A stretch of DNA of 64,000 bases. It comes from Escherichia coli. Lineage in GTDB: Bacteria; Pseudomonadota; Gammaproteobacteria; Enterobacterales; Enterobacteriaceae. Position numbers: made by a program. Location of the stretch: assembly GCF_041248615.1 (NCBI RefSeq), contig NZ_CP158425.1; one strand, written 5' to 3'. Numbering within the stretch: the first letter of the stretch is position 1; each line of letters opens with the position of its first letter. Positions 39,001 to 45,000 of this stretch are shown here, one piece after another.

Positions 39001-42000
39001 CTATGAAGCGGAAGTGGCTGAACAAAGCAATGAACTCAAAACGCTCCAGGCCAAAGTAATGAAGCTGGAAGCTACCCTGGAGGCGGAGAAAACAATCTCA
39101 GAATCCCTAAAAGGCACCATTGATACATTAACTGGTGCAATGGCAGGGGGAGGTACTGGAAAGTCAAAACAGCCGCGTAGCAGAAAAACATCATGATAAA
39201 TGAAGCCAGGTTGATACACTTCTCTGCATCCCCTGGCACATAAGAACTTCTGCGGACATTCAGCCCGTCCGCAGGAGTTTTCGTCCTTCAGTCAACAAAT
39301 GCACTACCTTTTTTGAGTCTCCACTTTCCAGAGCAGAAAACACGTTACCGATTCTACCAACAGCTTGTATCTGAGTGATAACCCCAGTCTTGTAATCATC
39401 TAGGATCCCTGACAGGAAAGCGTTCAGTTTTGTCTGTTCGCTTAGCGAAAGCATGTAGGACATTTTTTCTCCATTTTAAGCAGGTGTGTCAGTTGAAAGA
39501 GGTTTGCGTGATTCTGGAAAATGAGGCAGCACCATAGTTTCAGATGCTGTGGTCGCATCCCAGTGCCACCATCCATAAGGCCCATATTCACGGTTGTAAT
39601 AATCTTTTTTGAGTTGCTTTCGGGCCAGATAAGCAGGAGTGGCCATACCAAATACTTCCATCGGGAACGGCTTATCGCTTTTTGTGTCGAGCAGGTAGAA
39701 GTCAGGGAACACCTCACTAATACTCGCATCATAACGCATGGGCTTAACGTACTGCCGGTGCTCTGCATCCAGCTTTTCTGCAACAACCGCCTCATAGGAG
39801 GAGTCCAGAGGTATCCAGTTCTCGCTAACGTGCATCAGCACAATTTGATGAGCTCTTACAGAAGGGCCTCTGCCGGTTACCGCAGCTGGTGACGTCAACG
39901 CAAAGACAACTATTTTCGCCCCGGATTTCCATGCTGCGTACTCCGATGAAAATCGTTTCTTTACGCTATCCCAATGGACTTCTGAATTGAAAAAAATCAG
40001 CGGTAGCCCCCCAAAATTCCGCAGGGGTAAAAATTTAAGTGGCTTCTCATGCTTTTCAGCATCGTAGCGAGGTAAAACTGACAGGAGCATGAGACGTTTA
40101 TCACTCATCGCCTGTGATGAAAGACGCTGAATTTGCGACTGAGCGACAGGTTGTTTCGGGTCAGGTACACCAATGAATAAATGGTCACCTATGCAGGCTC
40201 TGCCGGTACGAATTTGTTTAGCGGTTTCAAGCAGACGATACCGTACCAGTGAATCGTTACGTTTCCCTGCCATTTTCGGGTACCAGACATTCAGACCAGA
40301 CTCTGTCCACAAAAGACTAAGCAAGCCCAGGAGGGTCATTGAGGCCTGACCTCCTTCTGGTCGCTGAACATGGGGCAGGGGAGGCACTTCTGATTTTTCA
40401 GGAGGATCTTTCTCTGTCATACCGATACCGAGCCTTACAGCCATATCACCTTCGGTTGTAATCCGGACCACACCACTCGCATATCCTTTCAGGCCGGTAT
40501 GCCGGGCATCAAGGGAGAAGAATACACAGGAAGGATCATGCTCAATGCCCGTGTTAGCGGCTTTGACGAGAATAAAGGCATCACCGTTCGGTAAAGCACG
40601 AACATAAAGTCGCTTTTCTCCTTTTCCACGACATCCGCAGGTGATGACTGATTTTTGACCTGAGGTGTGGTGTGCCTTTTTAAGAGCCGACTGCCACCCT
40701 TTAGCAAACTCATCCTGCGTTTGAAAGTCAGGTGAATACCTTTTGACGTTTGGATCGTCGTCGTAAGCAATCATCACTGCGAATTTTTGGCTCATAGTAG
40801 TCTCCTAAACAGGAAGTTTAATATCCCAACCAGAGCAACACTTCCTGAGCGTCATACTGTTCCTTTACGCCCATGTCGCTAAAGAATTCTTCGAAATCTG
40901 TTTCGGGAACGCAATGCCTGGACAGTTCTTGTAATGCTCGTTCTTTAGATACCGTCTCACCTTCAGCTGATTCGAAATACGTCATGGTTGACCTCTGACA
41001 TTATTACAACAATCTTAAGCATTTAAATTGATGAAGGAGCTCAGGTCAGCTGACTTCGTCGTAAAACTGCCGCAAGCGCTGGGAGGCTGCAAATTCAATT
41101 CGTGACTTCAGCAGTTTGGCGACGGCCGCAAAGACATCAACGACCACGGAGTTCCCAAACTGTCTGTAAGCCTGTGTATTGGACACAGGGATACGGAAAA
41201 CACTTTCCCCGGGTTTATCGAAGCCCATTAGCCTGCTGCATTCACGTGGCGTTAGCATGCGTGGCCGACGGTCCATGTTGTATGTGTTATGGAAATCAGT
41301 TTCTCCCAGTTCATGAGACCAACCCCGATCAATAAGAATTTCAGATCCGTCTTTCATATAGCGGCTTGAGAGGGTTCTGGTGACACTATTAACATTGGAA
41401 GGATCTACTAGTCCAAAACCAAAACCATTGCCTTTTGCCGCATGTTTCTTTGCATAGTTGTATAAGTACTCCCAGAGTTTAGGGGAGAGGATGTATTTAC
41501 TATCTACGCTCGGATCCAGTAAATCTGAGAGAGAAGGGCGCTTGTCCGGATAAAAGTCTTTAATGTCTCTCAGAGTAAAACCGTCTTTCAGACGTAGGTC
41601 GCGGCGAAAACCAATAAGGACGATACGTTCACGGTGCTGGGGTCGGAAATGACGGCCATCGATGACTTTAGGATCATCCGCGCCCGTGCTTTCGCTGTTT
41701 GCGACGTCGTAGCCAAGCTCATCGAGCGTTTTCATGATGATGTTAAAGGTATTACCCTTATCGTGACTCTTCAGATTTTTTACGTTTTCCAGAACAAAAA
41801 TTGCAGGTTGTTTTGCCCGGATGATCCTGGCCACATCAAAGAAGAGCGTACCCTGAGTGTCGCACTCGAAACCGTGTTTGCGACCCATAGAGTTCTTTTT
41901 ACTGACACCGGCGATGCTGAATGGCTGGCATGGAAATCCCGCAAGAAGAACATCATGATCCGGGATAGAGGCATCGATAAATTTGTATGCCTCGTCATCA

Positions 42001-45000
42001 GTAACCTCGGGCCGGTTGCTAAGAGTGATGTCACGGATGTCTGAATTGAAGCGGTGCTCGTTCTCATCGCAATACCAGTTCGCCCGGTAAGTACGGCTGG
42101 AATAAGTATTCCATTCGCTCGTGAAAAGACATTTACCACCGATGGCATCAAATCCGCTTCGCAGTCCACCTATCCCTGCAAACAGATCGATAAAGCTAAA
42201 GTGCCTGTCCTCATAATCAGCAGGTCGTGAAGGTATTAAAGTCTGTAGATAGCGTCCATCTGCGATACTCAGCTCACAATGCTCAGGTATGCATGTAACC
42301 TGACGTTTAAGGGATGCACGGGACCAATTACTGCCATTTTCATCATTTAATACCTGAGCCAGATATTTCAGGTCATAAATGGTCGAAGCTGTTAACAAAG
42401 TTTTGTGGATCAGAGATGGTGTTTTATCCACATCATTCAGGTCTGTCTCAAGATCATGAGTGTAACGTTTCATCCAAACTCTCTCAGGAATAATATCTTT
42501 GAGATAGATTAACACGCTTAATTTGGATTATTTTTTGGTTCAGGTTCTAAATTTATTGTGATTATTCTGCCTTTAAGTTGCAAAAAGATTGGTTTTAAGC
42601 CCGCCCATGAAATAATGACTTGTTAAAATACTGCCTGTAAATAGGCTTGTGGATACATGTCTGTACTCAACAAATCAAGGTGAAATGATGTTTTTTTTAA
42701 CAAAGTTACTTTTGCCCATCATGATTGTTGTATTCCCAGTGGCGTCCTGGGGGAACTCAACAACTTTTGAGGCAAAGGTGGTTAAGATTGTTGACGGTGA
42801 CACCATAACTGCGTTGGATGCTCAAAACACAACCATCAAAATACGGATGTATGGTATAGACGCTCCTGAATCTAAACAGGCTTTTGGCCAAAAAGCAAAA
42901 CAGGCCTTAACCACAGCTATAGCAACTAAAATCGTTACCGTGATAGACCATGGTACGGATATCTATGGCCGTATGTTAGGTACCATCTGGTTAGATGGAT
43001 ATGATATCAATGCCTCTATGGTGGACAGTGGATATGCGTGGGTTTATCGGTTCGAAGATAACGCCATTGTCCCTGGCTATATCAAATATGAATCCGCAGC
43101 ACAAAAGGAGGCAAAAGGGTTATGGGCAGACACCAACCCTGTCCCACCATGGCAGTGGAGACAGGCAAACGAAAAGCCCAGAAAGGTGAAAGAGAAGAAA
43201 TAACCATGATGAAAGAGCCTCATCCGTTACTTCAGTTGGTACTAAACGATTCCGGTCGTCTAACCATGCCTGTTTATTATAGAGATCAACAGTATTGCCC
43301 GACTTGCCTTACAAAGGTGTTGAAGAGTGAGGATGGAAGTTTGGCGCACCTCGGGGAAATAAATCAAAATACATGTAGACCTTCTATTTCAGTAGTTGTG
43401 ACAAAAGCAATTATTGAAATGTTATGTGACGGGGAAAAAATATATGTAAATCCAATACGACACCGAGGCCGGGTGCTGGCACCCTCAGTAATTTTTTCTC
43501 CCGACACTCACACTTTCAAACCGTTTATAAATACAGACTATCAGCCTGTGGGAGCAAACTGGAAAAGTGAAAAGGGATATAAACTCGGTCTGTTTTATCT
43601 CAAAGATCGAGCCAACTCTATCAATAAAGAGGAATTTGATTTCATTGCCGTTATAGACCCTGAGGCAATGCAGAAAGAATTTATTTCGGCCTGGTCTGAG
43701 GTTGATGAAAAAAATCCATTGGAAACGCTGAAGCAGATCTTACGATCTAAAAACAACTCTTCTTTATGGGTAAAATGGCCTGGCAAAATTGAGCATGCGC
43801 AAAAAGGAAATTACAACGAAAATTACTGGTTCGATTATCAATCTGATAATCAGGAAGTGAACTGTACGGTCTCTGTTGTAGGTATCGAAGGTAACAGTTC
43901 CGGTGAGACAATTTATAGATTGCAAACTTTGCTAAAGCGTAAGCTCAATGAATATCAACTGGTTCGGTCTTTAGGGACTATTATGCTTCTTGATAATACC
44001 GGGAATATGATTCCATCAAACCATCCTTATTTTGAAGTCATCTCAAAAGCATGTATAAATGGAGTGCGTGACTTTGTTCGTCAAAACCCGTGGGTAGTCT
44101 GACGGTCAACTATAAAGCATAATATAATTAGTAATAACAAGGAACAGACATGAATGAAAACTCAGTAATCTTAATAAGTTTATTTTGGTTTTTTTTGGGA
44201 TCGAGTGTTGTAGCTGGTTTTATGGATGCATCATTATATTGCTGGATTTTTGCAGCCATAAGCGCATTGTTTCTTCTTTCGGTGATACAAACACCAAAGG
44301 AGTTAACGGTATCTATTAGTCATATGACAAGCAAAACGCTGATCTCAAAGACAGATGATGGATACACATTTAGCATTTCACCTTACGGAGACGGGTACCG
44401 CTTATCAGTCTCGCCTGAAAATCGTCACAATGGTACCCAAAGCTTTGACGGCTGGTTCCCACGTTTTTTTTCCGAACCACAGTATGCCAAATCATCTTTA
44501 ACTAAATTTCTCGGTGAGTCCTTAGTATGGGAAGAAGATTCAAGTAATGCTCTATGAGATTACTTATTATAAATTTTTCTATTAATCTCCATGGAGTGAT
44601 ATATGAATTTGGCCTATTTTTTATTTTTGTCTATAACTGTTATGCTTACGAGCTTTATTATTAAATCACTTGTCGTATTGGTAAAGTTCAAATTACTTCG
44701 TGATGAACGTCTCGAATATACCAGCAATAAAAATATTGATGAGATGTACGATTTAATGAATGCGAAGGAAGAAATCCTCATAAGGCATCATAAGCAGATG
44801 TTGGCATTGCATCTTTCACTATTAATATTCGTTCTATTTATTGCTTACATTTACTAAAAATAATTTTATTCAACATTTCAACAAAGGGTTTTCAATGGAA
44901 AGCTTCGAAACTGAACAAATGATTCAATATGCTTTCTACATAAATATCGTAATAACGACTGGTTTGGCATGGTTTTGCTTGCGGTCAGGATTGCATTACA

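Follow-up and report, generated by a model that had tools for sequence, protein, structure and literature searches.

Four consecutive open reading frames (ORFs) on the minus strand of a 64,000-nucleotide stretch of Escherichia coli DNA (NCBI RefSeq assembly GCF_041248615.1, contig NZ_CP158425.1; the whole stretch is called the window below) were analysed at positions 39260-42473. They code, in this order, for a DNA methylase and for proteins of 55, 439 and 67 amino acids. The region belongs to the core backbone of IncHI plasmids (HI1, HI2 and their relatives) and is probably an operon that has been passed on vertically. The explanation that we favour for the locus as a whole, with a probability of about 0.6, is an IncHI backbone operon in which a predicted CCWGG methylase precedes genes that are not methylation-specific. 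A previous examination of the same DNA without database searches, referred to here as the sequence-only reading, had described this succession of genes, and the four ORFs are indeed there, all of them on the minus strand.

The first gene (dcm-like, 41046-42473, minus strand) encodes a protein of 475 amino acids when read from its ATG; a GTG further upstream, at 42515, opens the longest ORF. By sequence, the protein is a member of the Dcm/M.EcoRII subfamily of cytosine-5 DNA methyltransferases (NF007772, PF00145). It matches the NCBIfam model PRK10458 (Dcm; NF007772) with 845.8 bits, for a cut-off of 710, over profile positions 14-468 of 472, and the PADLOC models for orphan methylases and for type II methylases both give about 680 bits, with the orphan-methylase model highest. 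Alignment with Dcm revealed catalytic motifs I (FxGxG), IV (PCQ), VI (ENV), VIII (QxRxR) and X (GNSV, within FGNSVVV), which agrees with the earlier description of a Dcm homologue carrying all signature motifs. The protein is 65% identical to E. coli K-12 Dcm over 438 residues and 65% identical to an M.EcoRII-like enzyme which, in E. coli S5, adjoins a type II endonuclease of 402 amino acids. The variable region, on which specificity depends, is near-identical in both comparisons. Because of this level of identity and of the near-identical variable region, we infer with good confidence that the enzyme modifies the inner C of CCWGG.

Neither an EcoRII-like endonuclease (best E 0.057) nor a Vsr homologue (best E 0.2) was found by tblastn in the 64-kb window, which covers part of the plasmid, so that the methylase is probably an orphan of the CCWGG type, as proposed. 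The related statement that no vsr and no restriction endonuclease gene follows the methylase stands for vsr, but needs amending for the endonuclease, as the downstream 439-amino acid protein carries a PD-(D/E)XK nuclease fold. The closest known counterparts are E. coli Dcm, a chromosomal orphan encoded in the dcm-vsr operon, and M.EcoRII, of the plasmid-borne EcoRII restriction-modification system. With Dcm, the window methylase shares the N-terminal extension, the catalytic motifs, the variable region and, probably, the lack of a cognate endonuclease; unlike Dcm, it is plasmid-borne, has no overlapping vsr and is followed by the 55-amino acid, 439-amino acid and 67-amino acid genes. With M.EcoRII, it shares location on a mobile element in addition to the identity given above, whereas the window is devoid of any EcoRII-like endonuclease. 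Orphan Dcm-family methylases on mobile elements are a known kind, of which this enzyme is probably another example. Mentions of the methylase in the literature on IncHI2, R478 and R27 are at the level of annotation only.

A 3.7-kb stretch is 100% identical in record H1 and the other top-ranked records, and at least 99% identical in 1130 of the 1210 matching records, most of which are conjugative plasmids of 200-300 kb from Escherichia, Salmonella and Enterobacter. The operon is intact in about 1100 of these 1210 plasmid records. The best-matching plasmid is typed as IncHI2A, MOBH and MPF_F, and over 1100 of the matches as IncHI2/IncHI2A and MOBH; the window is 100% identical to plasmids of these types, in keeping with the conjugative plasmid that the sequence-only reading had proposed. 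Backbone genes found nearby include a tellurite-resistance cluster, hipAB, hha and an H-NS homologue, after which comes a tetA/mer accessory region. Three of the four genes are named in the RefSeq IncHI2 record, as "DNA cytosine methyltransferase", "hypothetical protein" (the 55-amino acid product) and "DUF1173 family protein". The region is ordinary IncHI backbone, previously sequenced and annotated, and does not constitute a new locus. Among the determinants for which IncHI2 and IncHI1 plasmids serve as major vehicles are mcr-1, genes for extended-spectrum beta-lactamases and for heavy-metal resistance, and the multidrug resistance of Salmonella Typhi.

In IncHI1 plasmids, all four genes recur with their order unchanged, at identities to the window of 72% for the methylase, 62% for the 55-amino acid protein (orf55), 81% for the 439-amino acid DUF1173 protein and 59% for the 67-amino acid protein (orf67). 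The trio formed by dcm, the small ORF and DUF1173 is also kept in three further IncH-like lineages, represented by Photorhabdus (82% DUF1173 identity), a metagenome (61%) and enterobacterial contigs (53%).

Outside these lineages, the DUF1173 gene is found without the methylase. In a scan of one genome per species, with 15 closer DUF1173 sequences as queries, 80 further DUF1173 loci were recovered at 23-41% identity, nearly all of them from Proteobacteria, and their neighbourhoods were inspected within 6 kb. A cytosine methylase was absent from 79 of these 80 loci, the single exception being a marginal match of 17 bits, and a motif screen of the same neighbourhoods gave no cytosine-5 or amino-methylase signatures. 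Loci at 39% (Pseudomonas) and 36% (Massilia) identity likewise have no methylase nearby. In a Klebsiella IncH-like plasmid (ter, H-NS, PsiA) whose DUF1173 protein is 42% identical, the gene is directly divergent from a staphylococcal-nuclease-type (SNase) gene, and both the methylase and the small ORF are missing; an SNase gene also lies near DUF1173 in three of the 80 distant loci. The interpretable neighbours of the distant genes code for AlpA-like regulators and for ParA, ParB, Gp3-like, SbcD-like and Rad50-like proteins, although neighbour clustering was cluttered by high-GC shadow ORFs. These are genes for the replication and recombination of mobile elements.

The Photorhabdus lineage provides a case of methylase loss. 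On contig JASNMP010000008.1 of Photorhabdus tasmaniensis (positions 7137-7669 of the extracted locus L002), the dcm homologue is a deletion remnant in which only residues 16-143 and 438-475 are left, in different frames, and residues from about 144 to 437, including the catalytic PCQ motif, are lost. The genes for the 55-amino acid, DUF1173 and 67-amino acid proteins are intact on this plasmid and under purifying selection despite the loss. Given the distant loci without methylase, the mobile-element character of their neighbours and the loss of dcm in Photorhabdus, DUF1173 appears to be an old mobile-element gene, upstream of which the methylase and the 55-amino acid gene were inserted in one IncH sublineage. 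The new methylation-associated module that the sequence-only reading had suggested is not supported by this comparison: DUF1173 is a described family whose distant loci have no convincing cytosine methylase, Photorhabdus has given up the methylase core and kept the three other genes, and orf55 occurs elsewhere without a methylase.

The assignment of the 439-amino acid protein (39476-40795, minus strand) to DUF1173 came from the profile search that had been advised for the uncharacterised products, and is a full-length match (PF06666, E 5.7e-39, residues 26-393). The family is large, with 1170 representative clusters at 50% identity (E up to 0.001). Residues C53, C55, H86 and C90, which form a CxC...Hx3-5C zinc motif in the N-terminal region, are invariant in 64 of 64 aligned sequences, and the CGCRGKG motif pointed out in the sequence-only reading is real and contains the invariant C53 and C55. 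The C-terminal domain (residues about 295-415) has the alpha-beta-beta-beta-alpha-beta core of the PD-(D/E)XK nuclease superfamily and comes closest in fold to Vsr and homing endonucleases. Residues E335, D365, D370 and E380 are conserved in 57-63 of the 64 sequences (89-98%), and the (D/E)xK position reads E-V-F, without the canonical lysine. The one substantive paper found on the family made two predictions, a zinc motif of the form CxC...H...C at the N-terminus and a PD-(D/E)XK-like domain at the C-terminus, and judged the family to be without an active-site signature (Laganeckas et al. 2010; PMC3045609). The full-length Pfam match, the zinc motif and the C-terminal domain are exactly as described there, whereas the conservation of the four acidic residues differs from that judgement, and the sequences suggest that the nuclease domain may retain an atypical E...D...E active site.

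Comparisons beyond the family gave little. When the PDB was searched by sequence with a profile of the 64 aligned DUF1173 proteins, no match appeared even at E up to 10, and a Foldseek search of AFDB50 with the DUF1173 model returned DUF1173 proteins only, hence no functional lead. The restriction-enzyme models of PADLOC and NCBIfam were not matched, nor was the Vsr family of Pfam (PF03852), even at E up to 10. A weak match of the C-terminus to the PADLOC candidate PDC-S68 (E 8e-5) was set aside, as it reflects the shared nuclease domain only. Compared with Vsr, I-Bth0305I and the DUF559-type PD-(D/E)XK endonucleases, DUF1173 has no homology at the sequence level and carries its zinc site in a separate N-terminal region.

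Several AFDB50 entries from E. coli and Salmonella which are 99-100% identical to the window protein are fragments of 200-380 amino acids, including an adjacent pair of 210 and 224 amino acids; these are either frameshifted copies on some IncHI2 plasmids or assembly errors. In a betaproteobacterial metagenome-assembled genome (locus L054, 7676-12829) and 13 similar loci, the gene after DUF1173, which has the same orientation, codes for a Gp3-like, "recombination directionality factor-like" protein (PF18897), and in L054 the genes next after it code for SbcD-like and Rad50-like proteins. This arrangement hints at a role of the neighbourhood in DNA processing.

The second gene of the operon, orf55 (40818-40985, minus strand), encodes an acidic protein with an isoelectric point (pI) of 4.2. 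It had been found by hand outside the gene track supplied to the sequence-only reading; the ORF is real, although RefSeq does annotate it (WP_000220758.1). The profile search advised for this protein was productive only in part: among PADLOC, NCBIfam and PHROGs, it yielded PHROG 25588 (E 1.8e-24), a family without assigned function. Homologues are SMR0164 of R478, gp01 of Pectobacterium phage PhiM1 and gp02 of Escherichia phage PGT2, and the similarity of PhiM1 gp01 to R478 SMR0164 had already been noted by the annotators of that phage. PhiM1 and PGT2 belong to two different genera of T7-like phages (Autographiviridae), and in both the homologue lies less than 2 kb from the left, early end of the genome. 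The phage records number 35, all of them from Autographiviridae and 32 of them PhiM1-like. Without a methylase, orf55 also occurs in two other plasmids, an Enterobacter MOBF plasmid and Burkholderia pBPSE01, in the latter among small genes.

T7 itself carries Ocr at the early end of its genome. Like anti-restriction proteins of the Ocr/ArdA type, orf55 is small and acidic and is found at the early end of T7-like phages and on conjugative plasmids; in contrast to them, it is far shorter, at 55 amino acids, and no sequence or fold similarity to ArdA, Ocr or KlcA/ArdB was detected. orf55 is thus a mobile small gene that recurs in T7-like phage early regions, and its product may be an establishment or anti-defence factor, the anti-defence lead being a weak one. 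On the Enterobacter plasmid NZ_CP133861.1, the orf55 homologue (56% identity; locus L099, 5001-5165) is unannotated and directly follows the genes for a MobF relaxase and a 183-amino acid "restriction endonuclease"; it adjoins a dinQ-type toxin, and no methylase is present nearby.

The last gene, orf67 (39260-39463, minus strand), encodes a basic protein (pI 9.2) conserved with IncHI1 and Photorhabdus. It is without annotation in the RefSeq IncHI2 record that was checked, whereas its 61-amino acid IncHI1 homologue, 59% identical, is annotated; orf67 is therefore probably a small gene missed in the RefSeq IncHI2 annotation. The Photorhabdus protein is 70% identical, with a proportion of synonymous differences (pS) of 0.76 for a proportion of nonsynonymous differences (pN) of 0.21. 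For the two small ORFs together, pS against the Photorhabdus copy is 0.65-0.76 and pN 0.21-0.22, and length and frame are preserved. As synonymous sites are near saturation while pN is low and both frame and length are kept, orf55 and orf67 are real genes. Homologues of orf67 are limited to IncHI1, IncHI2 and the Photorhabdus plasmid, the gene being elsewhere absent or replaced by unrelated genes, and a family search in NCBIfam, PADLOC and PHROGs gave no match. The protein can be regarded as an IncHI-specific accessory.

The four genes are separated, in order, by 60, 22 and 12 nucleotides, and Shine-Dalgarno-like sequences GAGG, AGGAG and GGAG lie 6-8 nucleotides ahead of the starts of orf55, DUF1173 and orf67, respectively, which bears out the good ribosome-binding sites and short gaps reported from the sequence-only reading. 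A sigma-70 promoter-like site (TTTACA-18-CATTAT, 42612-42641, minus strand) is located upstream of dcm, where the intergenic region between the divergent genes is AT-rich; it is a match to consensus only and weak evidence, as 6 promoter consensus matches were found in the region for 5.2 expected by chance. At the other end, a terminator-like hairpin (CTGCGGAC-N9-GTCCGCAG, 39250-39274, minus strand), also a consensus match only, has a stem of 9 bp and a weak T tract, overlaps the stop codon of orf67 and sits between convergent gene sets. As the promoter-like and terminator-like matches bracket the four genes, they look like a single transcription unit, in which the downstream genes are probably co-transcribed with the methylase.

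In the explanation that we propose, the methylase would modify the inner C of CCWGG in both plasmid and host-chromosomal DNA. Such methylation would make an incoming plasmid resistant to restriction of the EcoRII type, and would protect from killing by EcoRII-type restriction-modification elements. Since chromosomal Dcm, which has the site of EcoRII, guards against parasitism by EcoRII (PMC3424554), a protective role is the natural reading of the plasmid enzyme. This protection would matter mainly in hosts devoid of a chromosomal dcm. The DUF1173 protein, in which a putative zinc-binding N-terminal region is joined to a Vsr/homing-endonuclease-like PD-(D/E)XK domain, is most likely a DNA-binding nuclease, or a nuclease-like DNA-processing factor, serving the recombination, repair or establishment of the element. 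As for orf55, it may act as an establishment or anti-defence factor. The downstream genes would thus share transcription with the methylase, as the consensus matches suggest, without being specific to methylation.

A number of observations weigh against this explanation. A chromosomal dcm homologue is present in 5365 of 5426 complete E. coli genomes (98.9%), which makes the protective benefit in the usual hosts uncertain, and the methylase may instead have a regulatory role. Another promoter-like site, at 41027-41000 between dcm and orf55, could uncouple the transcription of these two genes, being likewise a consensus match. The dcm-orf55-DUF1173 trio persists in five IncH-like lineages despite changed flanks, which is compatible with a functional link, and since DUF1173 is a nuclease-like neighbour of the methylase, encoded on the same strand, the two may have a lineage-specific partnership. 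The frequency of CCWGG on the backbone (observed/expected 0.84, near that of control pentamers) shows neither strong avoidance nor strong enrichment and is uninformative either way.

One form of such a partnership would be a type II (EcoRII-like) restriction-modification pair, in which DUF1173 cuts unmethylated CCWGG and the methylase is no orphan. The location of DUF1173 250 nucleotides downstream of the methylase on the same strand, its nuclease fold with the conserved acidic residues E335, D365, D370 and E380, and the maintenance of both genes across IncHI1, IncHI2 and three related lineages are all compatible with this pair. We nevertheless give it scarcely any credence. As the family is mostly found without a methylase, DUF1173 is disfavoured both as a cognate restriction enzyme and as a dedicated substitute for Vsr: the 80 distant loci have no convincing cytosine methylase or methylase motifs in their neighbourhoods, and the Klebsiella, Pseudomonas and Massilia loci have none either. 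The protein also fails to match the PADLOC and NCBIfam restriction-enzyme models and lacks the canonical (D/E)xK lysine, which reads E-V-F. In Photorhabdus, DUF1173 remains intact under purifying selection after loss of the methylase core, a situation that a host dcm could mask. A role as cognate endonuclease was rejected on the distribution of the family together with the Photorhabdus methylase deletion. Very improbable too is a Vsr analogue, which would nick the T:G mismatches left by deamination of 5-methylcytosine at CCWGG, the succession dcm-DUF1173 then mirroring dcm-vsr. Besides the overwhelming absence of methylases around the family and the failure to match the Vsr Pfam model, the active-site histidines of Vsr (GCFWHHHH) have no obvious counterpart in DUF1173 (FGMATP), and the protein, which has extra domains, exceeds Vsr by about 280 residues and reaches three times its size. 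A dcm-vsr repair pair was likewise set aside, given that the window contains no Vsr gene and that DUF1173 has no match to the Vsr family.

A different view is that the four genes act early after transfer as a coordinated anti-defence or establishment cassette, in which CCWGG sites are masked, orf55 inhibits a host defence such as restriction or a methyl-dependent nuclease, and DUF1173 and orf67 counter other barriers. Plasmids are known to use orphan methylases against restriction, the phage homologues of orf55 occupy the first or second gene position at the early end in two genera of Autographiviridae, and the acidic protein (pI 4.2) is also encoded among the small genes of other conjugative plasmids. 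However, the operon is flanked by the tellurite-resistance cluster on one side and by the accessory resistance region on the other, and all the phage evidence comes from a single family, with 32 of 35 records PhiM1-like; we hold this cassette to be unlikely. A more elaborate version, in which dcm and orf55, once inserted upstream of an ancestral DUF1173 in the IncHI lineage, would cooperate with it to "methylate, protect and repair" during establishment, seems to us improbable. It would make orf55 a new small anti-defence protein and DUF1173 a new family of zinc-finger, Vsr-like endonucleases acting on lesions or mismatches in the DNA of the transferred element.

If the backbone methylase of the favoured explanation does help the plasmid to survive on entering new hosts, it would contribute to the host range of IncHI plasmids. 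DUF1173, a large and confidently foldable family without a solved structure, offers a lead as a nuclease-fold family of plasmids and integrative elements, and orf55, which IncHI plasmids have in common with the first genes of T7-like phages, could be screened cheaply as a candidate anti-defence factor. A specialist would find neither lead surprising, and current views are not overturned.

Divergent from dcm (42688-44102, plus strand), a gene for an SNase-type thermonuclease with a hydrophobic, signal-peptide-like N-terminus is followed by a gene for a 298-amino acid protein which matched nothing in Pfam and NCBIfam. On the other side (37164-39196, plus strand), a gene pair convergent with the operon encodes a DUF4942 protein of 276 amino acids (PHROG 38825, E 2e-100) and an acidic coiled-coil protein of 401 amino acids with weak SMC, SbcC, LmuB and JetC-like matches. 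In the IncHI2-like loci examined, the dcm-DUF1173 block comes together with this pair, and for IncHI1 a gene of the size of the coiled-coil gene only is listed. Several IncH-like lineages (L003, L004 and L011) have a gene for an HNH_2-type endonuclease at 5-7 kb from the dcm block; the copy in the matching IncHI2 plasmid, at about 32790-33130 of the window, is short, with 113 amino acids compared to 285-352 elsewhere. Finally, the GC content rises from about 0.40 to 0.66 at about 47800-48000 of the window, which in the matching plasmid is where the IncHI2 backbone gives way to the tetA-tetR-mer accessory region.

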